DNA of 64,000 bases from an uncultured virus (IMG/VR IMGVR_UViG_2061766007_000271) (taxonomy: Duplodnaviria; Heunggongvirae; Uroviricota; Caudoviricetes), in the IMG/VR virus record IMGVR_UViG_2061766007_000271. The stretch is one strand, 5' to 3'. Below, one piece after another: positions 2,207 to 63,210 of this stretch. Position numbers and translations under genes: made by a program. Below the pieces are notes generated by a model, which worked only from the letters and a program-made list of their open reading frames with translations, was not told where the DNA came from and did no database searches. Position 1 is the first letter of the stretch; every line of letters starts with the position of its first letter.

Positions 2207-5200
2207 ATGGGCTTGAAATTCGCTCGCTTAGGATGGATATACAATGATGCCTGGCATTGGAACCAGACCAAGACATTATACGAAGATGTAAACGGGCATC
2301 GGGTGTACACGGATGCCTCAAAACACTGCCATCAGCGGGGGCACGTGCATCTGTTCCTCCCCACGGTCAAATTCTCTCCAAACGGCTCGTCGTTGGCATA
2401 CTGGGGTGAACAGACATACCATTTCCACATCACGGACGAATGGGGACCAAATTCAGGAGACCCGTCGCAGAACAAATCCGTCAGGCTCATCGGAAAACCG
2501 ATATGGTACGTCTATGTGGAAGAATACTGGAGGAGGTTCTACGTCCAGCCGTGGGACATGGTGGACGAGACATGCGACCTGCCATTGAATCAGGAAATCA
2601 CCTATACGCAACGCGACCTCGACGGATACTGCCATGAATGCATCGCGAATGTCAGCAAATGGGGAAGGACAATCGACATGCACAAGTCGTACATATTCAA
2701 ACATGTAAATGGAGTAAAAACGATACTCACGGAGCTTACCGATTTCCAATTGGACGGACAGGACGGGTTCGACGTGTCTGGCTATACATACCAGCAGGAA
2801 GAACACAGCGGGATGGATTCGGAAGATACGCCGTATCTTGGATTTAACGACTTTGTACGTTATCACATGCGTAAGAATGCAAGGGAGATTTTCATCCAGA
2901 AACCCGTATATAAAGTGCTGTTCACGCAATGGGTCGCCAGAAATTATCTCTCTGACTATATAACCGTTGACGAATCTGGGAACATCACCCCGAAGACGCA
3001 ATATGTCAACATCAACACAATCAACAGCTATATCGACAGCCATCATTATTTTCTCCACGGTACGTTTATTGAGACATCCAGCGGAATCGTGCTCAACGAC
3101 CCAATTCCAGACAAGGCGGTGATACAATTCCTGTATGCGATTGAAACAGTGTCGGAAACAATAAAGGAGACAGGCAAGGAAGACCGTGTTGTTGAAACTG
3201 AAATCCAGTACATCAGGGATTTCAACGAGTTCTACGTCAACAACATGCAGGCTTACGACAACTACGTGGATTCGCAGACCATGTTGGACGAATACATGTC
3301 CATCAACAATATCCAGATGAAGGAGGGAAGCAAGCTGAGCACGGATGGTACGGTGCTTGTTCCAGACGACAACACGCTGGGGCATGTCGGCATCCGATTC
3401 GACGCGAGCAAGCCGTGCCACACCCTTGGTCCATTCATGGAAGGAGGGGAATTCTATTTCTTCAATACGGTCGTAAACCGCACGATGCCATGCGAATACT
3501 GGCTTGACAAGGAGATGCGCACACGCCAGTATTTCATCAAACAGAAATGGACTCCTACGACCGATACGAACGGCGGTCAGACATGGACGTTCGACGGCGA
3601 CAAAACGCATTTCAAATGGGTGCCGAACCTGTTTTCAGACGCGCAGAAGATGCTGAAGGACGAGTACACGGAGGACAGGGGTTCAAATTACTATCCCATC
3701 AGGCGTTTGCCGAACATCTACAACGAGGAAAACTACAATTGCAGGGGGATGAATGCCAAACGCCTGAAGAGCGACGGAAGGGGCGGTGAACCGAGCAACG
3801 ACATCGTACCGCAGGACAAGTACCAGGTAAGCGCACAGACCAAGCAACGCCAGCCAGACCCGACAGCCCCACGCCATGTGACCTACACTGAAACCGACAT
3901 CACCATCGAACCTCTGGAAGAAGCGACGGAAATACAGCCACACGTCAACGAAGTCAAGCATCTGGAATGGGAGTACGGCGGATGGACGGGATGGTACGAG
4001 AAGAACGAAATGGTGAAATGCGTCACGGACGGAAAATGGTACAAACGCGCATGGAGTCCAATCAACTACACGAAGGATTCCCCATTGTGGAACAGGACGA
4101 AGAGACAACAATTCCCGAACCCCTCCCCGTGGCTGTGCGACAATGCGAACAATCCTTATTCGCAGGAGACGAAAGGAAGGTTGAAGGGATTGCAACACGT
4201 CAAATCGACATGGTGCACGAACATGGTATATGATAACGACGAAGCCAACAGAATCCATCTTCTGCATTGGGAATACGCGCTTTACTTCAATCTCACCAGA
4301 CAGTATCCGCGTGACTTCAACTTCGCGGAGGACGACGGTGCCTCGTTGAGAAGACACTTTTTCCTGTTCTCCACTCCGTCGACCAATCCTGTGAACAACG
4401 TATTATTCGTCAAAGTGAAAATCAGCGACGGGACATACACTCCCCCCGTCCCTACAAACGGATACGACGACGGAGACATCAATTACTACATCAACAAACA
4501 GAAGATATTGGACAAAATCCCATTCGGTGAAATACCAGCAGACATCGAGACGCTCATGGAGGAATATGCGGAGCAGAACGGCGCGATAACCAGCATCGAG
4601 ACGGAAAACGCCGTGTTCGAGAACTGGCTGTCGTCACTCGGCTCGGCATTCTTCATGTTGTATGAAGACAGGGACATCAGATGGCATTACCTGAATGAAA
4701 GCCATACGCAGAAACGGGAAATCACGCAAGCCGACATCAGGAACGGGAACATGTATGTCACGAATGTGACCCACGACGGAACGGAAGTGCTAGCCCCTCT
4801 CCCAGAGCCAGAATTCACGGTGTCATACGGAAGCAGGACGGAATACGGGGAAGATGAGTCGCAGTTGTATTACTGGCAGTCATACCTGACATTCAATGAC
4901 TTCAAGAATATCTGGGAACCATTGACGCAGGAGCAGATAACGGCTTTGAGGCTCAACGGCGATGTCCCGCAACGCAATGAAGAACCGTACTACATGCCAG
5001 ACAACATATATCCAGAGACGGCAAACGAATCAGATTCATCAGAGGAAACAACATACAAACGGAATGCCCTGAAAGCACTTGAGGAGCATCTGGAGGACGA
5101 ACAATCCCCGTCGTTGCTTACCACTGAATTCTTCCCGCGCATAGATACGATAATCAGGGCTGAAAACGAACGCAGGAGGAATCAGCCACAATTCACCGTA

Positions 5201-6655
5201 TCTCCATTGGATGAGCTTGAAACGGATTCCCCGTCTGGAAAATCACTGTCCGCCATCATTTCAAGCGGTGCTCCACTCGACCCGTACCGCAACGGGACTG
5301 TCAACCCCATCGAGACATGGAAGAAGTATTTCGACCACAGGGAGGAATTCACGATTCCAGAGGAAACGACCGCTGGTGGGGACGGAGGAAACCAAAGCAA
5401 CACATATGTCCAGACAGATGAAATGAATTCATCAACCATCACACTGGGGACGCAGATGCTGAATCCGAAAGGCTCTCAGAACTACCCAAGTGTACATCCG
5501 CGTGAGACATCGTTTCATCATGAGGACGGCGCGAGAAGGCATTATCCAGACGACATGTTCGTAAGCCCAGTGCTGGAATACCAGAAAATTATTAGACGTG
5601 ACTATGGAAGACTGCCTGGAAAGGATGATGAAGAGCAATTCCTGCAAGCCAATTGGAAGACCGACAAGACGGGAAACTGGGGCGACGGCTTCGACATCAC
5701 CGTGACGATACCGTGGAAGGAACATGGGGAAGTCCAATCTCCATTTTCAGAAGGAGACAATATAACCCAGCCAATAGGCACATACTGCCATAATTGTATA
5801 AAACCAGAAGACAAGATGCGCTATCATCTGGAATGGTACGATTCGCTAGACCAGATACGGAAATACGATTTCCCCAACTACGTCAATATCATTCATGCAT
5901 TCCAGAAAGAGTGTATGCCGACTTCATACACCCCTCCCCAGCCACCAGACGGGCAACAGGCGAATGAATCATCGACATACCAGTTCACGGACGAGAACAA
6001 CAACACGTATACGGCGGACATCACGGATTTCACGCAGTCGTTATACAAGGAAGATTTCAACGATTATGAGAAAACGAAGACACTCAGGGCGACAGAGCTG
6101 AAATCCAACAACGGGGTGTACAATCTTCCAGAACTTGCGCAGTACAATGCACAGCGTCTTGCAGAGAACCCGAATGCAAAGACGTATTCCAAATGGCAGG
6201 AGGCGTTGGACGACTACTGGATTAGAATCAACGGCAATGATGTGACACCGCATCAGAACATCTACATCGACCGCCCTGTAGTCAGGGGATACGATTGCAA
6301 AGGAAATCAAGTGGAGGAGAATGCGTTTGAAAGACTGGAGGATGGAAGCATCATGTGGAGGGAACAGACAACGAACCTGTTGCCGACAATCGAAATGCAG
6401 ACAAGTGAAAACCGAGTGGGCAAATATACGGATTCAAAAGGAAACATCGTCAAAGGAGGAGGACTCGTGACATTCAATGACCCGTATAAAGACCACCACG
6501 ACGGTAAATGGTACGAAGAATGTTTAGGTGCTATAGTTCGTGCTCGTTGTGTTTTGATTTTGGAAGATGCACTTGGATACCGCTGGCAACAGGTGGTCGA
6601 AGCCACGGCATTGCAACCCGACCAGCCAATCAGAGGCAAGGATTATGTAGAATAG
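2207..6655 (+). CDS. very large hypothetical protein (1482 aa), possibly virion structural
   Basis: Uninterrupted ORF with AAGGAG RBS; acidic and rich in aromatic residues, Thr and Asn; no recognised domain. Confidence 0.8.
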   Translation: MGLKFARLGWIYNDAWHWNQTKTLYEDVNGHRVYTDASKHCHQRGHVHLFLPTVKFSPNGSSLAYWGEQTYHFHITDEWGPNSGDPSQNKSVRLIGKPIWYVYVEEYWRRFYVQPWDMVDETCDLPLNQEITYTQRDLDGYCHECIANVSKWGRTIDMHKSYIFKHVNGVKTILTELTDFQLDGQDGFDVSGYTYQQEEHSGMDSEDTPYLGFNDFVRYHMRKNAREIFIQKPVYKVLFTQWVARNYLSDYITVDESGNITPKTQYVNINTINSYIDSHHYFLHGTFIETSSGIVLNDPIPDKAVIQFLYAIETVSETIKETGKEDRVVETEIQYIRDFNEFYVNNMQAYDNYVDSQTMLDEYMSINNIQMKEGSKLSTDGTVLVPDDNTLGHVGIRFDASKPCHTLGPFMEGGEFYFFNTVVNRTMPCEYWLDKEMRTRQYFIKQKWTPTTDTNGGQTWTFDGDKTHFKWVPNLFSDAQKMLKDEYTEDRGSNYYPIRRLPNIYNEENYNCRGMNAKRLKSDGRGGEPSNDIVPQDKYQVSAQTKQRQPDPTAPRHVTYTETDITIEPLEEATEIQPHVNEVKHLEWEYGGWTGWYEKNEMVKCVTDGKWYKRAWSPINYTKDSPLWNRTKRQQFPNPSPWLCDNANNPYSQETKGRLKGLQHVKSTWCTNMVYDNDEANRIHLLHWEYALYFNLTRQYPRDFNFAEDDGASLRRHFFLFSTPSTNPVNNVLFVKVKISDGTYTPPVPTNGYDDGDINYYINKQKILDKIPFGEIPADIETLMEEYAEQNGAITSIETENAVFENWLSSLGSAFFMLYEDRDIRWHYLNESHTQKREITQADIRNGNMYVTNVTHDGTEVLAPLPEPEFTVSYGSRTEYGEDESQLYYWQSYLTFNDFKNIWEPLTQEQITALRLNGDVPQRNEEPYYMPDNIYPETANESDSSEETTYKRNALKALEEHLEDEQSPSLLTTEFFPRIDTIIRAENERRRNQPQFTVSPLDELETDSPSGKSLSAIISSGAPLDPYRNGTVNPIETWKKYFDHREEFTIPEETTAGGDGGNQSNTYVQTDEMNSSTITLGTQMLNPKGSQNYPSVHPRETSFHHEDGARRHYPDDMFVSPVLEYQKIIRRDYGRLPGKDDEEQFLQANWKTDKTGNWGDGFDITVTIPWKEHGEVQSPFSEGDNITQPIGTYCHNCIKPEDKMRYHLEWYDSLDQIRKYDFPNYVNIIHAFQKECMPTSYTPPQPPDGQQANESSTYQFTDENNNTYTADITDFTQSLYKEDFNDYEKTKTLRATELKSNNGVYNLPELAQYNAQRLAENPNAKTYSKWQEALDDYWIRINGNDVTPHQNIYIDRPVVRGYDCKGNQVEENAFERLEDGSIMWREQTTNLLPTIEMQTSENRVGKYTDSKGNIVKGGGLVTFNDPYKDHHDGKWYEECLGAIVRARCVLILEDALGYRWQQVVEATALQPDQPIRGKDYVE

Positions 6656-7098: not shown

Positions 7099-9345
7099 TC
7101 ACTTCCTACGTCCATATGTAATGATTTCGGAAGTCTTGCGGAAGAAAGCATCCGTCATTTCATCGACTGATTCGAGGTACACGAAGTAATCCTTTCCGTA
7201 GAACTTCTTAGGCGCATCCGTACCGATGCCGAAAGCGTACACTTCGACATTGTTATCCCTGCACAGCTTGACCGTATCGGTCAGGTTCTTGTAGAGAAGA
7301 GAATCACTGCAACTGCCGTAGTCATTCGGGAGACCATCGGAGAAGACGAGGATGATGTGACGTTGCGTTTTCTGCTGGATGTTGCGCTTGAACGTTTCCA
7401 GCAATGCTTCACCATCGATGTTGCAACTGTATGCGCTGATGGAACCAAGACGGTACTTTTCAGCTTGGTAACGCTCGTTGAAGTTCTTGTGCTCGTACAT
7501 GACGAGTTTGGAAGTCCTGCTGAACTTGCTGTAATCAGTGTAAGACAGCTTGCGACCACCATTTTCACAGGTGTGTCCGAGGACTTCAAACTTGATGCCG
7601 ATACGTTCTAGGACTTCGCAGAACGCGATGACGATTTTGCGGAATTCAGGCGCGAGTTCACAGCAAGAACCCGATTCGTCAATGAGAATTGACACGCTTG
7701 TATCAAGGGAAATCCCCTTGATGACTTTCGTGAAGATGTTGTTTGTAAGGGATTTGGCGATGTTGGTCGCGTTGCGCTGGACATTCAGCATTCCCTTGTC
7801 GTAATTGTAGATGGTGCGATTTCTCGAAAGTGTCTTCAAGCATTGTTGGAGATAGGATGACAACTTGGAAGTTGCTCCACGGATGCTACTGAACGCCATG
7901 TCGAAGTTCATCTGATTCTTCTTAGCAGGGATGACTTCATCCTCAGCCGTGTAGGGAATGTATTTTCCGAACACTTTTTTGGATTCGTCAAAGATGCGTT
8001 TCAGTTCCGCCCTGATTTCATCCTTTTCCTCATCGTTGTCGATGAAATCATCTTCGAGAGATTTGTTTTCCTTTCCGCCACCATGAGGAATCTTCCATTT
8101 CGGATTCTTCACATTCGTGGTTTCGGACTCGTCATCGTCATCACCGTCATTGGAACGATTGTTCGATTTTCCGCTGGATGACTGATTTCCGTCAGAGGAA
8201 TCATCGGAATCTTCCCCATCCTGACCATTGCCATCAGAGGAACTACCATTACCATTTTCCTGACCGTCCTGACCGTCTTCGCCATCACCGTCAGAATCGC
8301 CATCTTCACCATTATCATCGGATTCGTTAGATGAAGAAGAATCTGATTTGTCTGACTTATCGGATTTGTTAGATTTGTTTCCGTCTTTTTCGTCTTCCTC
8401 ACCGTCACCGTCCTGACCATCGCCATTTTCAGACTTGTCGGACTTGTTTTTTCCATTGGACTTATTGGAATCGTTAGATTCGTTTCCCTGATTTTCATCA
8501 GAGCCGTTTTCTTCGGATTCCTTGCCGTCCTGAGATTTGGAAGACTTGGACTTCTTGTTCTGCTGATTATCCTGACCGTTGCTTTCAGAAGATTCACCAC
8601 CGTTCTGATTGTCGCTGGACTGACCGCCTTGCTGATTCTGCTGGTTGTTCTTCTGCTGATTCTGATTCTGCTGGTTGTTGTCACCAACACCGTTCTGATT
8701 CATGTCTTCGCGAGTTTCTTTCCACTTTTCAAGGATTTCATCCGCGATTTTTTCAATTGTCCTGAATCCGCGTTTGCTCGTGCAATCAGCTTCCATCCAC
8801 CGATTGTAAATCGGGAGTGCATCGTCAAAGTAACGCTTCGCGACAGGGGAGAGCATGCTGTACACTTCGGGGAATCCGAGAGCGTTGACATGGAGAGCCA
8901 CCATCGTCTCGTTGATAGGGTTCAGGCACTGGTATTTGCCTGTCTTGAAGTACGTCAGGTGCTTTTCGCAGTGATGACGGTTCGCTGAATCAAGGTCATC
9001 CTCGAAAACTTTGGACAGGGTTTTAAGACCACGCTCGATGCGCAGGTCTTCAAGGGAGTTGATGAGCCTGTGTCTCATGGGATTCTGCTTGGACTGGCTT
9101 TCAGTACCCAGTTCATCCAACGTGGGAGTGAAACGAGCATGACCGACCTCATGTTCGTTCGCAGCGCGAACAAGTTTGTCATCGGACGGATTAACAATTG
9201 TCGGAAAGACAGGGGTGTAGATGGTGCGGTTCTGCAAATCGCAATGCGGAACAACGTCATTTGAAATGTACTTGTGTTCCCACTTTCCAGCTTCCGAGCC
9301 GAGAATGAAGTGGTCGATTGCGTTGTTGGCGTTTTGTCTATCCAT
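7099..9345 (-). CDS. CobT-like VWA-domain protein with N-terminal HExxH motif and low-complexity D/S/N/Q/G linker
   Basis: HEVGH motif, NSLEDLRIER, MIDAS motif ILIDESGS, FSDGLP and VYAFGIG. Confidence 0.85.
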   Translation of the reverse strand: MDRQNANNAIDHFILGSEAGKWEHKYISNDVVPHCDLQNRTIYTPVFPTIVNPSDDKLVRAANEHEVGHARFTPTLDELGTESQSKQNPMRHRLINSLEDLRIERGLKTLSKVFEDDLDSANRHHCEKHLTYFKTGKYQCLNPINETMVALHVNALGFPEVYSMLSPVAKRYFDDALPIYNRWMEADCTSKRGFRTIEKIADEILEKWKETREDMNQNGVGDNNQQNQNQQKNNQQNQQGGQSSDNQNGGESSESNGQDNQQNKKSKSSKSQDGKESEENGSDENQGNESNDSNKSNGKNKSDKSENGDGQDGDGEEDEKDGNKSNKSDKSDKSDSSSSNESDDNGEDGDSDGDGEDGQDGQENGNGSSSDGNGQDGEDSDDSSDGNQSSSGKSNNRSNDGDDDDESETTNVKNPKWKIPHGGGKENKSLEDDFIDNDEEKDEIRAELKRIFDESKKVFGKYIPYTAEDEVIPAKKNQMNFDMAFSSIRGATSKLSSYLQQCLKTLSRNRTIYNYDKGMLNVQRNATNIAKSLTNNIFTKVIKGISLDTSVSILIDESGSCCELAPEFRKIVIAFCEVLERIGIKFEVLGHTCENGGRKLSYTDYSKFSRTSKLVMYEHKNFNERYQAEKYRLGSISAYSCNIDGEALLETFKRNIQQKTQRHIILVFSDGLPNDYGSCSDSLLYKNLTDTVKLCRDNNVEVYAFGIGTDAPKKFYGKDYFVYLESVDEMTDAFFRKTSEIITYGRRK

Positions 9346-9496
9346 TGTAAAATCTCCTTTATTGGTTGGTATTGTTTCCTGTTACAATCATAATATACAT
9401 CCATTTAAGGAAAATGCAACAGCGCAATGTAAATAAAATTGGGGAGGATGGAAAATTTTCCATCCTCCCCTGTCACCAACCACGGAGACAAAACTA

Positions 9497-14547: not shown

Positions 14548-15309
14548 TCAAATGGCGAAAGGCAAATCGCAACGTCGCAATCGTTCATCCATCTCGTCGA
14601 ATTCCGTAGTCACCTTCCCTTCTTCCGTATGCACCGCATTTACGAACACGGGTATGCCAAGCCTGTTGGCATGCGTCACGATTCCTACCATCCATTCCTG
14701 TTTGCATGGAGACGGGTCATCGCCTGTTTCAGCTCCTACAATAATCCATTCCACCTGCTTCAACTGCTCGTCGGTCAGCAATGAATTGACATCTTCCAAA
14801 AGCGGTTCGAATGCCACGAAACGATGCTGGACTGCCTTTGTCGCAATCAAGTCATCCAACCGCTTGACATCATCTCTGCAACATACGCTCACCCCGAAAG
14901 CCATCCTGTCGAATGCAAATGGTTCAAGATGGTTTCGGTTCAAGCGTTTCAGCAAGTCGATGTCGTTGAAATACCGTTTTAGATTGCCTGAGAATTTCGT
15001 CAGGAAAAGATACTTGTTGTACTTGTTCGCATTGCACTTGGTCAATACCGCGTCCACTATCCACTGGTCAACGCCTGTCCCGTTGCGTCTGTCCTGAAAC
15101 AGGTCACTTTGGGTGCATACGGCAATAGTCTGAGGTTTTGAATCAAAATCACGGTACAATTGCTTCTTGTTCACTTTGAATTCGCTGAAGTTGTTCCACG
15201 CCCTCCCCCTGCGCTCCATGAGCGACTTCGCATAACATTTGTCGCATCCTTTGAAATCACCACAGCATCCGAATATCGGATTCCAGCATCTGTCATAATA
15301 CTTAGCCAT
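14548..15309 (-). CDS. phage Gp37/Gp68 (DUF5131)-like radical SAM protein
   Basis: WNPIFGC...GCDKCYA, SDLF, LFLTK, FEPLLE and WIIVGAETG. Confidence 0.85.
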   Translation of the reverse strand: MAKYYDRCWNPIFGCCGDFKGCDKCYAKSLMERRGRAWNNFSEFKVNKKQLYRDFDSKPQTIAVCTQSDLFQDRRNGTGVDQWIVDAVLTKCNANKYNKYLFLTKFSGNLKRYFNDIDLLKRLNRNHLEPFAFDRMAFGVSVCCRDDVKRLDDLIATKAVQHRFVAFEPLLEDVNSLLTDEQLKQVEWIIVGAETGDDPSPCKQEWMVGIVTHANRLGIPVFVNAVHTEEGKVTTEFDEMDERLRRCDLPFAI

Positions 15310-16787: not shown

Positions 16788-18002
16788 TCAGGAAATGTAG
16801 TCGAAATCGGAACTCCGCTTGTTGCTAGCCATGTAGTCCGTTGACCACACCATGCGGATTTCCTCGTTGAACGCAGGTTTGTCAGATTCAGGAAGACCAT
16901 TGTAGATGGCGGTCTTGACGGCACGAGCCATCCAATTGGGCAACTTGTTCTTCCTGAACGTCTTAGCAAGATTGCAAATCGCCACGATGGAACGTGTCGT
17001 GAACAACGTCTCGATTCGCTCGTTGCGGAAAAGGTTGCGGATGTCATCGCGGAACTTCATGAGCCTGTCGGTTTCAAGGTCATCGTTAAGGATGCCGAGC
17101 GCAATCTGCTTTTCAGCCACCTTGTTGTAGCCGAACTCGAAGAAGCCAGTGATTCGGTTTCGCGTGGATTCGTCCATCTTGTTGCCCTGAGCCGTGTAAC
17201 CCATTTGGAAACGACCGCTGTTACCTGTGCCGACCGTATTGCCCGAAAAGAACATCACAAGACCTGGATGGGATTTGACGATTCTGCCCTCGTCAGGAGC
17301 GATTTCCATCGAACGACCCTTGCCACGCTCACGTGGGATTTCCAGCGCACGATTGAAAACTCCGAGGAAGACTTCGGGGAGCATCGCCGCGAATTCGTCT
17401 AGGAAGAAGAACGCAGGTTTGCCGACCACAATCGGCTCTCCGTTCGCATCGAAGACCTGATTTCCGTTTTCATCCAGCTTCGTGCCCTCGATGAACGCCT
17501 TGTACAGAGGTCCTTTCTCGAAGTGGGTGTAGTTCTGCTTCGCCTTTTGGTCAACCGTAACAGACTTGGAACCGTAGAAGTCGTACATGGTCAGACCCTC
17601 GCTACCGTTGACCTGATAGACCTTGACCCCGAATTCCTTTGCCAATTCGTAGATGAATTCGGTCTTGCCTGTGCCCATAGGTCCCGAAAGCATCAGGTTA
17701 GCCATGCCGTCACCGTCAATCGACTGCTGGATGAGGCAACGCACCTCGTCCGCAAAATCGGGCATGATGTATTTGTGGGTGGATGTGGTCTTCTTGACCG
17801 CAGGTGCTGGATTCCGCGTGAAGAGGACGGCATCATTAGCCGTGTCCTCGATGCACACGATTCCCTCCTGCTTCATGCGAACCTTGTCATTCATGAAGCT
17901 GGTTGCTTCACTCTTTTTCAAGGTCACATCGCCTTTCCAAACTTGCTTGACAAGCTCTTCGATGTTCTTGAACGTCATGGTTTCAGTCGCTGTTTCCGCC
18001 AT
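16788..18002 (-). CDS. CobS/CbbQ/MoxR-like AAA+ ATPase
   Basis: Walker A GPMGTGKT, Walker B FFLDEF, GNTVGTG and DESTRNR. Confidence 0.88.
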   Translation of the reverse strand: MAETATETMTFKNIEELVKQVWKGDVTLKKSEATSFMNDKVRMKQEGIVCIEDTANDAVLFTRNPAPAVKKTTSTHKYIMPDFADEVRCLIQQSIDGDGMANLMLSGPMGTGKTEFIYELAKEFGVKVYQVNGSEGLTMYDFYGSKSVTVDQKAKQNYTHFEKGPLYKAFIEGTKLDENGNQVFDANGEPIVVGKPAFFFLDEFAAMLPEVFLGVFNRALEIPRERGKGRSMEIAPDEGRIVKSHPGLVMFFSGNTVGTGNSGRFQMGYTAQGNKMDESTRNRITGFFEFGYNKVAEKQIALGILNDDLETDRLMKFRDDIRNLFRNERIETLFTTRSIVAICNLAKTFRKNKLPNWMARAVKTAIYNGLPESDKPAFNEEIRMVWSTDYMASNKRSSDFDYIS

Positions 18003-24876: not shown

Positions 24877-25386
24877 TGTTGTGTCTCCTTTGATTCTTGT
24901 GGTTGTGGTTGTGGTTGTGGTTGGGATTAGAGCGGTAATTAGAAAGTGCAGTAGTAACCTTTGTCCGCAGCATTCTTCACGTTGCGCCAAAGCTCTCTGA
25001 TTTCGTGCGGTTTTCCGCAGGTGTAGCCGACCTTGATTCCTTTTTTCGTCCGTCTGAACGTGAGGAAATGGGTTTCAGCCATATAGCGCGTTCCGTTCGT
25101 GACCGCCTTGTTGAAATCATCTACCATCTGCTCATACGTCTTTTTCATGGGGATGCCCTCTTTTTTGAATGTTTGACTGTTTTGGATGTTTGACCGTTGT
25201 ACCTATAATATACATCCGTTTTACATGATTGCAACTGGATATGGCATGAAAATCCGCCGATTTCATGTTTTTTNNNNNNNNNNGCTAATGACAAAATCGT
25301 TTGCAAAACTCACATTGTCAACCTTGCCATTGCTNNNNNNNNNNAAAAAAGGCTGGACTTTGAAAAGTCCAGCCCTTGTGGATGAA

Positions 25387-42769: not shown

Positions 42770-42883
42770 TCCATTTTTTCAAAAAATCAGACGAGTCTAT
42801 TTGCAATTTGACGTTGAAAGTGTATATTATATGCAACCTCGAAAACGAGAGGCGAAACAACAACCACAAGCAAAGGAGCAAAA

Positions 42884-43529: not shown

Positions 43530-45416
43530 TAACTTAAAATCTACCAAAATCTACAACTGCTATAAATTCTGGATTAGATTCTTTACTTAATATGGTCTAT
43601 CTCAGACGCAAATCAAGTTGCCACGGAACTTTTCCAGCACTTCCAACGTCTTTTCTTTTGAATTGACCTTTGGAATATATGCACTGGAACCTTTAGAGTC
43701 CTTCTTGAGAAGCAAATCACGAAGCACTGCTTGTGAAACTCTGTTTCTGATATTTCTGGAAGCATTCAAATCTGCATTTGCTTTATAGCCACAGTCCACA
43801 CACTCGAAATGCTCCTGGTCTTTTCTGTTTTCCTTATCTATGCAACCACATTTAGGACAAGTTTGAGAAGTATAGTATGATTGAACCAGACTTACTGCGA
43901 TTCCATATTTCCTTGCTATATGTTCAAATTCATTTTTCAAATCGCCAAGATGTAGAATCCTCAATCTTCTATTGTAATTCAAGTCATTCTCATCCTTCGC
44001 AAAAGTGGAACCGAATTGATTATCTAAATCCTCAAAGACTGCATGATGATAATGATGAGCCTTCAATCGCTTGCAAAGACTGGCAATTTCTTCTTTTATT
44101 TTCGATTGAAGTTCTCTATTGAGATGGTCTATCTTATGCTGTTTTCTCTTTCCGATTTCATAACTTGAGTTTCTTTTCTTTAACTCATCTATTTTCTTTA
44201 ATTCCTTAGATAGTGTTTCCACCAGTTCCCTGTCAAAATCAATCTCATAGCCATTTGAACAAGTCATCAGGTTGTGCTTTGAATTGACATCTATACCAAC
44301 GATTCTATCTTTCACTTCTGGGAAATATCTTTCGTCCTCATAGGATAAAATCATTCTAACTTGATTATTCTCTTCCAGGCAAATTATATATGACGTATCG
44401 GTTCCATTAGTATATCTCTTCAATTCACCGTGAAAGTCCTTCGAGTATTTCATCGGAATCGTCATCTTCTTCCTATCCTTGAGATACCACGAGATGTTTG
44501 CGAAGGAATTGAGAATAGATTTCCTATTCTCATTTAACGAAACAATGTCTTCTGTCAATCTGCTTCTTCCCCTGAAACTCAATGACTGGAACTCAATAGA
44601 TTTTTGAGAATATCTTTCAATGATTCTGTTTCTTTTACTCATCGCAAGAGCGAAAAGCCTAGTGAATCCAAACTTGTAAATCGTATCTAGTACATCCGCA
44701 TAGAATTTCTCTTTTTCTTGATTAGTTTCATTGACGAACTTTTCAAAAAGATAATCTACAATTCCAAAATATCCATATCTAGCGAGATAAGTAAGAGTAA
44801 TAGAAAGTGGAGTATCATCATGCTTGATTATGATGCTTTTGAAATCTCCTGAATGATACTCTCTTCCATTCTTGGCTTTACCACTTCTCTTGTAGTAGTT
44901 GAAATGGTATTCACTGATGTGCTGGAATTTTAGTCTTCTCTTGACATTGTTGAATTTGTTTTGATATGCTGTATAAACATCATCACACAATTGCTTGGTG
45001 AAATGACTGCTTATCTCATCTTTGATATGTGGAAGCATTGTCTTCTGGAAGTCAATTTTCGACATCTCCAAATATCGGAACAAATCCTGATTAACAATTC
45101 CAGAAATCTTGTTTTTTGCATCACGAATAGATATAGCAAGAGCATGGATTTCCTGATACTTCTTGTCAGTCAATCCATCACTGTAAAAACTCCTGCTGTA
45201 TCTGCTCTTGACTTTCATTTCAAAAAAGAACCTCCAGATGAAAGTGATGACGGCACTATTCAAGAGGAGGTCTAAAAATTCAGTATTATAATGTTCAATT
45301 CAATAAAAGCCGTCATCAATTATCGAATCTATATTATTATACTTCATATAAACAAAAAAATCACATCAATTGTAAATTTAGTTAGAAAATTGTAGATTTT
45401 GGTAGATTTTTAGTTA
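43530..45416 (-). mobile_element. non-autonomous TnpB-only element, IS607-like ends
   Basis: 27-bp inverted ends matching at 26 of 27 positions (43530-43556 and 45390-45416), each with tandem AAAATCTAC; interrupts a gene; no transposase seen. Confidence 0.8.
43602..45218 (-). CDS. tnpB: TnpB/Cas12f-like RuvC nuclease (about 538 aa)
   Basis: RuvC-I IVGIDVN, RuvC-II VFEDL, YTSQTCPKCG...CVDCG zinc finger and RuvC-III NADLNASRNI. Confidence 0.9.
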   Translation of the reverse strand: MKVKSRYSRSFYSDGLTDKKYQEIHALAISIRDAKNKISGIVNQDLFRYLEMSKIDFQKTMLPHIKDEISSHFTKQLCDDVYTAYQNKFNNVKRRLKFQHISEYHFNYYKRSGKAKNGREYHSGDFKSIIIKHDDTPLSITLTYLARYGYFGIVDYLFEKFVNETNQEKEKFYADVLDTIYKFGFTRLFALAMSKRNRIIERYSQKSIEFQSLSFRGRSRLTEDIVSLNENRKSILNSFANISWYLKDRKKMTIPMKYSKDFHGELKRYTNGTDTSYIICLEENNQVRMILSYEDERYFPEVKDRIVGIDVNSKHNLMTCSNGYEIDFDRELVETLSKELKKIDELKKRNSSYEIGKRKQHKIDHLNRELQSKIKEEIASLCKRLKAHHYHHAVFEDLDNQFGSTFAKDENDLNYNRRLRILHLGDLKNEFEHIARKYGIAVSLVQSYYTSQTCPKCGCIDKENRKDQEHFECVDCGYKANADLNASRNIRNRVSQAVLRDLLLKKDSKGSSAYIPKVNSKEKTLEVLEKFRGNLICV

Positions 45417-49128: not shown

Positions 49129-49593
49129 TTATGCAAACACGACTTTTTTCTTATTCTTGACTTTGGAGCAATCCAAGTTTTCCTTGTATTCGTTGCCGTC
49201 ATCCTGCGTCTTCAACCAATCGAACATGGTGTCAGCGGTTTCCTGCTTGAAAAACCAGCCGATTTCAAATTCGCAACAATCACTAATTTTGACCGCAATC
49301 CTGTACGGATGGTCTTCTTTCCACAATGAATCGAAATCCCTGTTCGACAATTCGTGGTCGGTATGGAATTCGTGTTCAACGACAGGAGCGGTGGCATGGA
49401 TGATTTTTGCACCGAATGTGTTTTCGGATTCATAGATGCGGAAGTCACCGCAACAAAAGCGACCTTGAAGTTTCTGCTTCCAATAGTCCATGACTTTGAT
49501 TGCGTCTTCCAACTTGGTGAAGCAACTGAAAGTATAGGTGTCGGGGAAAACGGAAGAGCCTGTGTTTCTGACAACGAAAAGATAATATTTCAT
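49129..49593 (-). CDS. hypothetical protein
   Basis: AAGGAG RBS before MKYYLF; own promoter. Confidence 0.7.
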   Translation of the reverse strand: MKYYLFVVRNTGSSVFPDTYTFSCFTKLEDAIKVMDYWKQKLQGRFCCGDFRIYESENTFGAKIIHATAPVVEHEFHTDHELSNRDFDSLWKEDHPYRIAVKISDCCEFEIGWFFKQETADTMFDWLKTQDDGNEYKENLDCSKVKNKKKVVFA

Positions 49594-49754
49594 GATTTTG
49601 CTCCTTTGATTATTCTTTGATTGCATTATTCGTTGTAATCATAATATACATCCAAAAAACACGAATGCAAGTCGGCAACACATACAATTTGCCATCATGG
49701 TTCGATGAAAATAGTATTGAATATTTAAATATTGAATGGGCAATCTTCATTCAT

Positions 49755-49983
49755 ATTTCAACTCACGCACTTATGTAAAAGTGTGTTTTAATCAATTTGC
49801 AAAAAGTTCACCGTGATTGTCATTTTAACTCGCGTTTCAATAACTGAAACGTAATTTGCTCGTAATCCTACTTTCATGCCTAGCCAGATTTCAACTCACG
49901 CGCCCCCGCAGGGGCGCGACTTTATTGTATATGTGTATATTAAATAATGTAACCAGTTTCAACTCACGCGCCCCGCAGGGGCG
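49755..49983 (-). CRISPR. type I-C-like CRISPR mini-array: 4 visible repeats, 3 spacers, cut by an N gap
   Basis: Repeats at 49755-49787, 49822-49854, 49888-49920 (ATTTCAACTCACGCGCCCCCGCAGGGGCGCGAC) and 49956-49983+; spacers of 34, 33 and 35 nt; adjacent to cas3. Confidence 0.85.
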
Positions 49984-50141
49984 NNNNNNNNNNAAAAACA
50001 GCCACATTTTTGAAGAAATCTTCATAAGTCGCGTATTGACAATATCCGCGAATCTTATGCCTAATGGTATGCCAACTGTCGGTTCGCGGATTTCATCAAC
50101 GCCTACAATATACACCCATTTTAACGGAATGCAACTAGACT

Positions 50142-52589
50142 TTACACAATCATGCAGGAATTTACATTATCAAGACTGATTCCGCTTCCTTTGACATAAA
50201 GCACATCGCCAGCGAAATTCCGTTCTTGAAGCACGTATAAGCCTAGCTTGCTTCCATTGCTCTCCAATTCCTCAACCATTCCGCTGTTGTAGAGCATTTC
50301 AGCCGTATTGCGGTTTACCTCCACAACGTACTGTTGCAACTTGCGCTGGATTTTCTTGTTAAATTTGTATCTAGCATCTCTAAGCAATTGGTCTATCTCA
50401 TGGTCTTTATTATTTTCATGGTACATGACCACGATTGGAAATCCGCGTTGCGCTTCAATCATGTGGAATGATTCGCCGTATGTCTTGTAATTGAAAAAAT
50501 GGAATGGTATGCGGGCTTTTTCGAGTCCATTGCCTGTCTTGTCGTACAAGGCATTTTTGTAGCCTTTGAAATTATCTTCCACTTTCTGCCCATAATGGAA
50601 GATTTCTTTCTTGGAGTACAAAATGTTCAAATCATGCTCACCAATGTTCGCTGGTAGCTGACCTGTCTTGACATCCAGCATGTCTTCCATGATTCTCTTC
50701 TTTTCAAAAGCGTATTCGTAGTTTTCAATCGGGTAGTCCGACATTTCAAAGACATAGACAAATCCAACATTCTTCTTTCCGTTTCGGTTGCACCGTCCGC
50801 CTGTCTGCTTGATAGAGTACCATGAATTCATTTCACGCAACGCGACATCGAAATCAAAGTCCACGCCAGCTTCGACAAGGCTGGTGGAAACAACCGTTAT
50901 CTTGTCCCCTTTTTTCAGACGGTCAGCGATTATCTTTATCATCCGTTTCCTGTCTTTCGGACACAAATCCTTTGACAGCATATACTTGTCATCAGAAGAC
51001 TTCGCCACCATGTCATAAAGCACCCTGCATTTCTTCCGTGTATTCGTCACACAAAGAAACGATTGTGTTTCATCCGAAATCATCCGAGCGATTTCAGCCG
51101 ATTTCTTCCTGCCGATGAACATGAATTCGTTTCTTTTGAAATCATCGAACAATTCATTGACATCATCGACCAGCATGACCGAGCCATTGTAGCCGTCAAC
51201 TGTCTTTCCTTGACCGATGTTGATTTTTCCGTCGAATGCAGGGAGCGTAGCCGTGGAGCGCACAATCGTGCAACCGAAATCCTTTACAAGCGCATTGAGC
51301 GCATTGGTGATGGGATAAATCTGCTCTATCGGCAACTGCTGTTCTTCGTCAATGATAATGACGCTGTTGGCAATGCTATGGATTTTGCGAGTGTTTTTCG
51401 CTTTCCATTGCAACAACGATTCAAAGAACTGAACTGTTGTGGTTACGATGATGGGGAGATTCCAGTTCTCGACAATCAACGCCATGCGTTCTTCAAGTTC
51501 ATTCAGATTACTGCGAAATCCCTCTTTTCCGTCTTTTTCAAGCACGTCGAAATCGCATTGGTGTTCGATTACGTTTTCATCCGTGAAAATTTCAGTATAA
51601 GTCGTTGCGGTCTGGTCAACAACCGTAGTCAACGGAGCAAGGACAATCACCCTGTCCATCTTGTGAAAATCAGCGTGTTTCAAAGCAAAGTACATGCCTG
51701 TAATCGTCTTTCCCGCGCCTGTGGGAAGGACAAGATTGTAGATTCCCTTTTTGTCCGTAGCATGACCAGCGACCATGTTTCTCACATTCGTCCTTTTGAC
51801 ATTGACAGGTGACTTCGCATCGGGTCTTGAATCAATCTTGTCATGGATGTATTGCTCCATCATGCCTAAAAGCTCATGAATGCTTTTGAATCCACCTCTT
51901 TCCTCCTGCTTTTTAAGTCCATCCGTACCATAGAGTTCAGCGTCAAGACGGTCTGTGTCCACAAGACAGGAGTAAATCATCCTGATGAAGAATTCGCCTG
52001 TGCCTTTTATGCTTGCATTATTCAACTTCGCACATTCTTTCTTCAATCCATCAATGACATCCGTTTCAAACACCTTGTCGAACATGCTGTCATCAATCGT
52101 GGTCAGGTCAAAACGTGTACGAATTAGAATGTCCTGCTTTGTATCAGCAAAGGATGCCTTTCCATTGTCAATGAAAACCTTGTCTATTTCATGAATTATG
52201 TCAGTTCCATTGTTGACGTTCACGACATCATGCAAGCCATTGTGATGCGAAACGATGCACTGCGCCATGAGTTCAGAGATTATCATCGCCAATCCTCTTT
52301 CGGATGGCATGGATTTTCCAAGTCTCCACGCAAGGTACACCGCACTTTCAAGGGCATGAGACATGACCGCTGGTTTCGTACCTGTCATTCCGTTCATGTT
52401 GTATGCGATTTTTGCATTGATGTACGTCTGCCATCTATCGGAATCCTTGTATGCATCATGGCACATCCCGACAATCTTTCCGAAATTCGGCATGCCGAAT
52501 TTGGCGCACATGGATTCGCATTCCCTCGACACATTTTCCAAATGCTGTTGCACGGTTTCATTAGGTCTTGCAATCTTCGTCATATTCAA
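50142..52589 (-). CDS. cas3: CRISPR-associated HD nuclease/SF2 helicase Cas3 (I-C-like)
   Basis: HLENV, HDAYK, SHH and SCLVDTDRLD (HD domain); LPTGAGKT, IIIDEEQ, STAT, STSLVEAGVDFDF and QTGGRCNRNG (helicase). Confidence 0.92.
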   Translation of the reverse strand: MNMTKIARPNETVQQHLENVSRECESMCAKFGMPNFGKIVGMCHDAYKDSDRWQTYINAKIAYNMNGMTGTKPAVMSHALESAVYLAWRLGKSMPSERGLAMIISELMAQCIVSHHNGLHDVVNVNNGTDIIHEIDKVFIDNGKASFADTKQDILIRTRFDLTTIDDSMFDKVFETDVIDGLKKECAKLNNASIKGTGEFFIRMIYSCLVDTDRLDAELYGTDGLKKQEERGGFKSIHELLGMMEQYIHDKIDSRPDAKSPVNVKRTNVRNMVAGHATDKKGIYNLVLPTGAGKTITGMYFALKHADFHKMDRVIVLAPLTTVVDQTATTYTEIFTDENVIEHQCDFDVLEKDGKEGFRSNLNELEERMALIVENWNLPIIVTTTVQFFESLLQWKAKNTRKIHSIANSVIIIDEEQQLPIEQIYPITNALNALVKDFGCTIVRSTATLPAFDGKINIGQGKTVDGYNGSVMLVDDVNELFDDFKRNEFMFIGRKKSAEIARMISDETQSFLCVTNTRKKCRVLYDMVAKSSDDKYMLSKDLCPKDRKRMIKIIADRLKKGDKITVVSTSLVEAGVDFDFDVALREMNSWYSIKQTGGRCNRNGKKNVGFVYVFEMSDYPIENYEYAFEKKRIMEDMLDVKTGQLPANIGEHDLNILYSKKEIFHYGQKVEDNFKGYKNALYDKTGNGLEKARIPFHFFNYKTYGESFHMIEAQRGFPIVVMYHENNKDHEIDQLLRDARYKFNKKIQRKLQQYVVEVNRNTAEMLYNSGMVEELESNGSKLGLYVLQERNFAGDVLYVKGSGISLDNVNSCMIV

Positions 52590-52704
52590 AACTCCTTTGC
52601 TGAAATGTAATTGTCTTTCCCATAATATACACCAAAAATGCGGTTGTGCAAATCACACAACCGCATTTTTTACGCACACATCAGGCAATACGAATATTCA
52701 ATCC

Positions 52705-53308
52705 TCACATGCGCTCGAAATGAAGCACGTTCTTCAACTTCCCCTCCACTATGTCGAACACGGATTCTATCTTCTTCTCGACCTTCTCGAACATTTTATA
52801 AGAATACTCGATATAGAGATAGTTGGCATCGTACTTCTCTTCGGAAAACCATACTATCGTGTTCTTGCTATCCAATCTTGTNNNNNNNNNNGACTATATC
52901 GAACACGGATTCTATCTTCTTCTCAACTTTCTCGAACATTTTATAAGAATACTCGATATAGAGATAGTTGGCATCATACTTCTCTTCGGAAAACCATACT
53001 ATCGTGTTCTTGCTATCCAATCTTGTTTCATCGTCTTCTTCAAATTGATGTTTCGCATAAGTGCATACAAAAATCCAAAATCCGACTTCCATTCCATCGC
53101 TTTCCATCTCCACTTGATACTCGACCTGTATCATGTTGCCAATGTCAACGGGAGAACCGTATTCCCTATATGCAAAAAGCGTGGATATATCCTGATATTC
53201 AGAAGGCATCTCCCCATTCCGAGTGTTTGAGAATCCGTGCCTATAAAACACTTCCGCCACTTTTTTCATCCATTCATGCTCTTCTTCAGAACTTAACTTC
53301 CATTTCAT
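52705..53308 (-). CDS. REYxxP-family paralog 7 (3' end duplicated across an assembly gap)
   Basis: REYGSPVDIGNMIQVEY; ends KLKNVLHFERM at 52705. Confidence 0.7.
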
Positions 53309-62845: not shown

Positions 62846-63210
62846 TTCCTGCCCTTTTTGTTATTGCCCTTGCCATGCTTCTGCTTCGGATGCTTCTTGC
62901 ACCATGCAACGTACACGGCAAATGGAGTACCCAAGTCAAGCCGTTCGATTGCCCTCATGTCGTAGGGTGAGTAAGTTGCGCTGAAAATCATGCTGTTTCC
63001 GTACATTGTCGTTCACTCCTTTGAGTTTTGGATTTTTGATTGTTGTACCATAAATATACATCTGTTTTCCATGAATGCAAATCCGCCTGATGATTTTTCT
63101 CCAAGCCATCCAACGTGCAGTACATATTCAATATCATATATGGGTTCGTGGCAAAAAATCAGGCGGTATGGGAATTACTCCCATACCGCCATTTGTGGTT
63201 TCCTTACGCC

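Follow-up and report, generated by a model that had tools for sequence, protein, structure and literature searches.

Parts of CRISPR-Cas systems carried by phages are known in the form of whole systems, arrays alone, genes of Cascade (CRISPR-associated complex for antiviral defence) without Cas3, and inhibitors derived from cas genes. Where phage repeats resemble those of the host, the phage may use host Cas proteins (PMC7162821); the solo Cas proteins of jumbo phages have been proposed to complement host systems (PMC13037316), and a survey of orphan viral cas genes excluded those with arrays nearby (bioRxiv 10.1101/2023.06.24.545427). A conserved Cas3 with a live array and no Cascade would be the missing reverse case. 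No conserved pair of this kind was found described in the literature searched; the supplementary tables of the huge-phage work, outside the search, may list such loci. Here a cas3 gene followed by a leader and a CRISPR array was analysed in a 64,000-nucleotide (nt) stretch of DNA, referred to as the window, from an uncultured virus (IMG/VR record IMGVR_UViG_2061766007_000271, Caudoviricetes).

A preliminary description of the window, made from its letters without database searches, had recognized no cas5, cas7, cas8c, cas1, cas2 or cas4 in the 64 kilobases (kb). This was confirmed by profile and similarity searches: Cas5, Cas7, Cas8, Cas6, Cas1, Cas2 and Cas4 were absent from the window both with Pfam (98 open reading frames, ORFs) and with the cas profiles of PADLOC (150 ORFs, both strands), and tblastn with six I-C proteins of the bacterial locus L044 (described below) gave no match in the window. 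The pair of cas3 and array has been kept through much divergence, with apparently intact catalytic residues, a promoter for each part and an array that changes among relatives. The mechanism best supported by these features is a system split between virus and host, in which the phage would supply the guides and Cas3 and the host would supply Cascade and the integrase; this reading is preferred tentatively and is given just short of an even chance.

Lineage and catalytic residues of the viral Cas3

The cas3 gene (Table 1), whose ATG is preceded by AAGGAG at 8 nt, encodes a protein exceeding the cut-offs of the NCBIfam models cas3_core (107.9 bits, cut-off 102.45) and cas3_HD (52.1 bits, cut-off 43.45), the latter placing an HD nuclease domain in the protein, and matching Pfam Cas3-like_C_2, ResIII and DEAD. 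In PADLOC, two Cas3c models ranked first (516.9 and 456.6 bits), followed by Cas3b; the top Cas3c model spans residues 5-804 (E 2.4e-155) and so includes the C-terminal domain. An AlphaFold2 model built from an alignment of 69 sequences (mean predicted local distance difference test score 91.7, predicted template modelling score 0.91) was compared with the PDB, where the top two folds were both Neisseria lactamica (Nla) I-C Cas3, namely 8ZNS (E 2.7e-38) and chain P of 8G9U, a Cascade-Cas3 complex (PMC11417383). The template modelling (TM) scores between 8G9U_P and the model were 0.71/0.75, with a root-mean-square deviation of 4.4 over 751 columns, and the next fold after the I-C entries was the I-E Cas3 of T. 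fusca with a TM score of at most 0.60. With phmmer against PDB sequences, 8ZNS and 8G9U were likewise the sole strong solved relatives (E 5.5e-61 and 3.6e-58), the matches covering residues 10-615 only. Profile, tree and fold therefore all assign the window Cas3 to the I-C lineage as a divergent member, and the full-length, I-C-like protein with HD and helicase domains that had been read from the letters alone is borne out by the NCBIfam cut-offs, the best PADLOC model and the fold ranking.

Eight close relatives of this Cas3 were present in the protein collection, with 93, 86, 61, 62, 62, 59, 50 and 41% identity, all other sequences being about 30-34% identical. A quick-search tree of 57 sequences, midpoint-rooted for drawing only, places the nine proteins (41-93% identical) in one clade (support 100 in the Shimodaira-Hasegawa-like approximate likelihood ratio test) on a long stem of 0.78 changes per column. 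This clade groups, with support 100, with the Cas3 of L003/P0010, P0011 and L007, and in L003 and L007 the genes cas5c, cas8c, cas7c, cas4, cas1 and cas2 lie directly 3' of cas3. The phylogeny that the preliminary description had proposed as a check thus nests the nine-member clade among the Cas3 of complete I-C operons, and as a separate clade within these the viral protein is a divergent lineage member and no recent copy of a host gene. The relative with 86% identity (P0003) resides on a contig of 655,914 nt. Beyond this collection, similarity was low: Cas3 identities in a metagenome scan were 24-35% among the matches listed, a single-protein scan of IMG/VR found no close relative of the Cas3, and the sole match of a profile scan of IMG/VR was a 34% identical fragment at a contig end (L001). 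In INPHARED, tblastn with Cas3 gave 5 records (best identity 32%), all short unannotated faecal contigs, and no DNA match to the window was found.

Across the 69-sequence alignment, residues H42, D43, K46, H76, H113, H114, S205, D209 and D211 on the HD side are invariant, as are G289, G291, K292 and T293 (Walker A), W374, D412, E413, Q415, A445 and T446 of the helicase and Q593, G596, R597 and R600 of the motif VI region; H14 is almost invariant. In NlaCas3, residues H8, H25, H52, D53, H118, H119 and S192 are crucial for the nuclease, and W354 and D392 for the helicase/ATPase (PMC11417383). In the alignment with the PDB sequences, Nla H25, H52, D53, H118, H119 and S192 correspond to window H14, H42, D43, H113, H114 and S205, a match for six of the seven crucial nuclease residues, and Nla W354 and D392 correspond to W374 and D412. 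Judged by these residues, the window Cas3 looks catalytically intact. The activity had previously been left in doubt on account of two motifs, HDAYK and DEEQ. Both are present as read, but only HDAYK departs from the family, and does so specifically in this clade (see below); with D412, E413 and Q415 invariant and DEAQ in Nla, DExQ is the family norm, and DEEQ is therefore no warning sign.

The array, its promoters and the surrounding element

The array is co-oriented with cas3 and begins about 150 nt downstream of its stop. The 3' ends of the repeats, at 49956, 49888, 49822 and 49755, give periods of 68, 66 and 67 nt, and the 16-nt repeat tail occurs three times at ≤1 mismatch and five times at ≤3 mismatches against 0.79 expected. 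The canonical repeat R2 folds into an 8-bp GC hairpin followed by an 11-nt single-stranded tail, the handle (-19.4 kcal/mol, z -3.3); R1 lacks one G of R2, has C as its last base and has its first 4 nt inside an assembly gap. In ordinary I-C loci the leader lies on the cas side of the array. The leader here was placed on the cas3 side because repeat degeneracy grows away from cas3. The stem and handle match those of arrays beside full I-C operons, in agreement with the I-C-like repeat noted earlier, which is R2. No Rfam family was found at gathering score over the window, nor at E up to 1 over 49600-50200, and comparison of the leader with 10 I-C leaders gave no convincing common motif. As a separate observation, R3 forms a 7-bp hairpin at the hairpin position of R2 despite its other stem sequence (z -2.2), and R4, in which the stem sequence is lost, still has a hairpin at that position (z -1.5), the tails of both being 10-11 nt; these hairpins may reflect chance, relaxed selection or a separate role as CRISPR RNA (crRNA)-like RNA.

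The relatives point to an array that is changing. A contig from another study (X3) covers 49400-49913 with 15 differences, including the next gene, R4, S3, R3, S2 and part of R2, and past R2 its letters are unlike the window, the joint consisting of two repeat copies with 34 other letters between. Contigs from a third study (X4) contain cas3 at about 92% identity (183 differences and 28 gaps over 2278 nt) and the leader; S2-S3 are barely covered, and a repeat, 30 other letters and a repeat are seen. Among these relatives, the cas3, the leader and, in X3, the trailer end are thus common while the leader-side spacers differ, which is the pattern expected of a live array still gaining and losing spacers; the comparison is made on contigs, to which rare variants and the exact spacer order are out of reach. 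The 154-aa ORFan downstream of the array has an 83% identical relative on a 14,015-nt contig, and the 93% Cas3 relative is also on a contig of 14,015 nt, which suggests, but does not prove, that the two lie in the same neighbourhood.

The gap between leader and array, whose closure from reads had been proposed, is bridged by a 3171-nt contig of run X1 that covers 49630-49983 and 49994-52700 with 77 letters in place of the 10 N. This length corresponds to about 5 nt of leader plus a further repeat, a spacer and the 4 nt missing at the start of R1. The run may be the source sample of the window, in which case the contig is a second assembly and not an independent sample. For the X1 sample this brings the array to about five repeats and four spacers, contiguous with cas3. 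A chimeric, host-derived join at the gap was ruled out by this contig together with the promoters of the element on both sides (50134-50107 and 49670-49643). The window holds 13 runs of N (10-58 nt; for example 52882-52891 and 25274-25283), and since the gap at 49984-49993 hides 77 nt, other 10-N runs may also hide more sequence than shown.

Table 1. Coordinates of the cas3-array locus in the window.
Feature	Position	Strand	Description
Terminator-like hairpin	52634..52670	minus	17 pairs; ends the unit upstream and shares bases with the -35 of the cas3 promoter
cas3 promoter	52624..52651	minus	TTGCA-N16-18-TATATT copy, TG-extended -10
cas3	50142..52583	minus	ATG at 52583, stop at 50142, 813 aa; HD nuclease, superfamily 2 (SF2) helicase and C-terminal domain; I-C lineage
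Leader	50141-49994	minus	About 150 nt between cas3 stop and array
Array promoter	50107..50134	minus	TTGCA-N16-18-TATATT copy inside the leader
Assembly gap	49984..49993		10 N; 77 letters in the bridging X1 contig
Repeat R1	49956..49983	minus	28 of about 32 nt visible; GC hairpin and tail ending GTTGAAAC
Spacer S1	49921..49955	minus	35 nt, AT-rich
Repeat R2	49888..49920	minus	33 nt, canonical
Spacer S2	49855..49887	minus	33 nt; kept in the X3 relative
Repeat R3	49822..49854	minus	Degenerate: other stem sequence, tail with 2 changes
Spacer S3	49788..49821	minus	34 nt
Repeat R4	49755..49787	minus	Terminal; only the last 16 nt repeat-like, 1 mismatch
Next promoter	49643..49670	minus	TTGCA-N16-18-TATATT copy; heads the 154-aa ORFan at 49593-49129

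The promoter pattern TTGCA-N16-18-TATATT has 43 matches in the window, 42 of them on the minus strand (the sole plus-strand copy being at 42801-42828), against 0.06 expected, a number not attained in any of 100 shuffles. The majority of copies read TTGCATTC-N8-TGGATGTATATT and are sigma-70-like with a TG-extended -10. Distributed, for example, from 9392-9419 to 63053-63080, they give the small ORFan genes a regulon-like arrangement. Both cas3 and the array are headed by one of the 43 matches, as the preliminary description had it when it placed them under the common promoter of the element, and since a further copy lies beyond the array, the element continues past it.

The remainder of the window is a one-directional run of small ORFs with almost no database matches. 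Family matches were limited to a CobT-like VWA protein, an AAA ATPase, a TnpB/Cas12f-like protein, an M28-like peptidase and a few PHROGs or Pfam domains of unknown function, and no tRNA genes were found in the window. The CobT-like VWA protein (7099-9345, minus) and the AAA (CobS/MoxR-like) ATPase (16788-18002, minus) represent a pair common in phages; tblastn gave 128 phage records for the former and 9 for the latter, at identities of at most about 27%, and IMG/VR gave no match for the promoter pattern or for the CobT-like protein. A 253-aa protein (14548-15309, minus) matches the PADLOC candidate defence families PDC-M41B and PDC-M30B (E about 2e-29). The 553-aa TnpB/Cas12f-like ORF (43602-45263, minus; Pfam Cas12f1-like_TNB E 1e-17, PADLOC Cas12f E 6.5e-27, PHROG transposase) lies 4.5 kb downstream of the array, where the GC content of the window is lowest (0.359), and is probably an inserted insertion sequence-type element; it was rejected as the effector of the array on the grounds of this distance, its appearance as an inserted element and the I-C type of the repeat.

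A 1482-aa ORFan (2207-6655, plus) has no family match and no usable match in the protein atlas; its relatives, 30-98% identical, are found on contigs of 202, 308, 328 and 391 kb, which indicates a lineage of very large elements. The genome of the element is probably 200-650 kb, of which the window would be a tenth to a third. The runs containing the stretch are labelled bovine gut or gut metagenome. From the promoter-rich, one-directional ORFan layout and the relatives on very large contigs, the window is quite likely the early-gene region of a very large lytic phage.

A possible division of labour and its alternatives

A scan of one genome per species found the R2 stem and handle in 11 loci. 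Two of these, L044 and L051, are contigs of one metagenome-assembled genome (MAG) of an uncultured Clostridia bacterium, with 16 and 12 exact matches to stem plus handle, respectively. Their repeat is identical to R2 at 28 of 33 nt, the differences being position 3 and four bases of the loop. The L044 array has as neighbours the end of a cas3 and, each scoring above its NCBIfam cut-off, Cas2, Cas1c, Cas4, Cas7/Csd2, Cas8c and Cas5c; Oscillospiraceae MAGs, a Pseudoflavonifractor genome and others contain near-identical repeats. Stem and 11-nt handle are identical between R2 and the L044/L051 repeat, and the I-C Cas5c, Cas7c and Cas8c of such gut Clostridia should accept the phage repeat. Two side observations concern these repeats. 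In the Pseudoflavonifractor I-C array (L047, 8062-10404), nearly each of about 36 repeats differs at several positions. Two Candidatus Caccocola genomes contain solitary repeat units with an R2-type stem and handle (L041, 2427-2455; L046, 10001-10030; several contigs of G005), and these units, lying away from arrays, are possible RNA anti-CRISPR candidates.

The simplest account of the locus is that it arose by capture of a whole cas3-cas5c-cas8c-cas7c-cas4-cas1-cas2-array locus followed by loss of the part between cas3 and leader, a course suggested by the juxtaposition of cas3 and leader, which is what remains once the block from cas5c to cas2 goes. Such a form exists in bacteria, as judged from two gut bacterial contigs that are 97-98% identical to a complete I-C locus through cas3: L028 (2457-5240) is 97% identical to the complete locus L029 through cas3, after which the array follows at once, and in L030 (9392-11742) cas3 is followed directly by the array, the cas3 end being lost as well. 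These are either natural cas3-plus-array deletion variants or assembly variants. The carrier would be a large mobile element of the ruminant gut community, most likely a huge lytic phage, in which cas3 and array would each be driven by its own copy of the sigma-70-like, probably early, promoter. Upon infection, pre-crRNA would be made; host Cas5c would cleave it at the base of the hairpin, and host Cas5c, Cas7c and Cas8c would load the crRNA. The hybrid Cascades could then form R-loops on matching DNA of competing phages, plasmids or the host itself, whereupon phage Cas3 would be recruited and the target DNA shredded, and host Cas1-Cas2-Cas4 could insert new spacers into the phage array. Within this sequence of events, we infer that the Cascade and integrase used are those of the host, and likewise the nature of the target and the early timing.

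A more far-reaching version, possible but on the doubtful side, is that at least nine diverged variants of a very large gut-phage lineage stably keep such a split system, with a private Cas3 that, through changes in its docking loop and HD motifs, would be tuned to host Cascade and evade the controls or inhibitors of host Cas3, and an array acquiring spacers in trans. The idea of a dominant-negative decoy, raised beforehand next to that of attack on competing elements, becomes less likely, since the clade has conserved its nuclease and helicase residues and the array shows turnover. If the system is indeed divided between virus and host, a virus arms the surveillance complex of its host with guides and a nuclease that are both viral, spacers can be written into a viral array by host integrases, and recruitment of Cas3 tolerates a much-changed partner, which is of relevance to Cas3 genome editing and its control.

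Several observations weigh against this division of labour. The window covers only 64 kb of a larger genome, so that Cascade genes could lie elsewhere, and the phage hallmark genes terminase, major capsid, portal and tail were not found among 99 ORFs compared with PHROGs. The genomes with matching repeats come from other gut samples and are those of candidate hosts; the candidate with the L044 locus has a cas3 of its own, leaving the benefit of a second one unexplained. R3 and R4, two of the four visible repeats, are degenerate. The search for spacer targets in phage and host DNA, which had been put forward in the preliminary description, returned nothing significant: all matches in INPHARED had E ≥0.07, the best (0.07) matching the repeat; in 5 candidate host genomes the spacer parts all had E >0.1, the matches with E <0.1 all lying in repeat parts; S1 and S2 had no exact match in IMG/VR and no significant match to the window itself. 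In the opposite direction, 435 spacers from the fetched bacterial arrays gave only chance-level matches to the window.

The Cas3 itself adds to these points. At the position of Nla H8, the motif-I His, the whole phage-like clade has Arg (IARPN). The Arg is also found in P0010, P0011 and P0020, P0010 being almost identical to the Cas3 of the complete operon L003, and the change is probably tolerated, because sister Cas3 of complete I-C operons have it. In HDAYK, a Tyr seen in the phage-like clade only replaces the usual Gly of HDxGK. In the solved I-C complex, a conserved Phe of the Cas3 anchor loop (Nla F437) sits in a pocket of Cas8, and the protospacer adjacent motif published for Nla I-C is 5'-TTY (bioRxiv 10.1101/2023.08.05.552134). 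Under a loop alignment that is uncertain, F437 aligns with window Q458 in a hairpin (451-464) without an aromatic residue; the loop columns of P0003 likewise contain zero aromatics, P0002 has one Tyr outside the tip, and six of the nine clade members have F or Y two to three residues past the tip. Most bacterial sequences have F or W within the loop. A pocket of the HD domain, for its part, takes up the recruit loop of Cas8. The seemingly altered anchor loop would call for caution on docking to host Cas8 and is not a refutation.

The alternative that survives best, though unlikely, is that the element has a complete I-C-like effector of its own, with Cascade genes, possibly very divergent, outside the window and with cas3 and array as one of at least two transcription units. 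The genome is probably several times the window, contigs of relatives measure 202-656 kb, and huge phages carry I-C-like Cascade genes without Cas3 (PMC7162821); moreover, given the low identity of this Cas3 to its bacterial counterparts (about 30%), a Cascade captured with it could be as divergent, and the seemingly altered anchor loop would fit co-evolution with a private Cas8. The layout argues otherwise: cas5c directly follows cas3 in 26 of 39 metagenome loci fetched by the Cas3 profile, among the matches listed (most of the remaining 13 are contigs stopping near cas3), whereas here the leader does, as after an internal deletion, and further cas genes are absent from some 50 kb to one side of the pair and 11 kb to the other. 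The repeat furthermore retains the exact stem and 11-nt handle of bacterial I-C arrays, suggesting selection by host proteins. Were Cascade to lie elsewhere in the genome, the locus would be one more incomplete-looking phage system of modest interest.

It is distinctly unlikely that the locus is an anti-CRISPR module, in which Cas3 would titrate or misdirect host I-C Cascade or crRNA and the repeats would serve as RNA decoys (Racr) or repressing crRNA-like RNAs (Cracr). Precedents exist in orphan viral cas genes, including Cas3 homologues, that act as anti-CRISPRs (bioRxiv 10.1101/2023.06.24.545427), in repeat mimics that inhibit I-C (RacrIC1, PMC10651486) and in phage crRNA-like arrays that silence host cas genes (bioRxiv 10.1101/2024.10.29.618823). 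The published viral anti-CRISPR proteins of Cas3 type are without HD, whereas here HD and all helicase motifs are kept across a diverged clade, and by dropping genes with nearby arrays the orphan-cas survey left the present architecture outside its coverage. On the side of the array, the hairpin position retained by the degenerate R3 and R4 and the part of the trailer conserved in the X3 relative would suit such a role, as would the apparent loss of the anchor-loop Phe and the probably early promoter type; against it, the leader-side spacers vary among relatives as in a working array, and no partial spacer match was found in the 5 candidate host genomes.

Least probable is a decaying remnant, with a fossil array and a Cas3 re-used as an unguided general helicase-nuclease, for example in the breakdown of host DNA: two of the four visible repeats are degenerate, no spacer target was found, bacterial cas3-plus-array remnants arise by deletion (L028 versus L029) and stand-alone I-C Cas3 cuts single-stranded DNA in vitro without Cascade (PMC11417383), but relatives from three studies retain the cas3-leader-array synteny with changing spacers, a separate promoter serves the array, and the canonical repeats retain the full hairpin and handle.

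Comparison with known systems

Compared with the I-C Cas3 of N. lactamica (8ZNS, 8G9U), the window Cas3 has the same domain order, fold and DExQ helicase motif and differs in the His-to-Arg change of motif I, the Gly-to-Tyr change in HDxGK and an anchor-loop Phe that appears not to be kept. With type I-C CRISPR-Cas as a whole, the window has in common the repeat with a GC hairpin and an 11-nt tail found in the arrays of I-C operons, but cas5c, cas8c, cas7c, cas4, cas1 and cas2 are missing from the 64 kb.

Among phage-borne inhibitors, AcrVIA2 and AcrVIA2.1 (bioRxiv 10.1101/2023.06.24.545427) likewise represent viral Cas3 homologues away from a cas operon; they lack HD and were chosen without an array nearby, whereas the window Cas3 has HD, all helicase motifs and an array about 150 nt away. 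RNA anti-CRISPRs and crRNA-like arrays (PMC10651486; bioRxiv 10.1101/2024.10.29.618823) are also RNAs derived from phage repeats, including I-C mimics, which R3 and R4 resemble. The window differs from these in that its spacers are regular, of full length and subject to turnover and that two or three of its repeats are canonical, and no match to a host cas promoter was found.

Viral mini-arrays that use host Cas proteins (PMC11656645) are likewise short, with repeats like those of the likely host and no effector complex nearby; they mostly target related viruses, while no target was found here, and the window array is accompanied by a Cas3 of its own, has at least four spacers and has a repeat identical at 28 of 33 nt to the closest array found. 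For the solo Cas proteins of jumbo phages (PMC13037316) the general notion is the same, namely that a large phage and its host may each carry part of a single CRISPR-Cas system; that account, in the part available, puts it forward as a general survey hypothesis without a Cas3-plus-array lineage, motif analysis or spacer turnover. The I-C variants of huge phages (PMC7162821) resemble the window in being incomplete and derived from I-C, in having no Cas1 or Cas2, in their compact arrays and in belonging to very large phage genomes. They keep Cascade and have another helicase in place of Cas3, and the window, at least locally, is the reverse.

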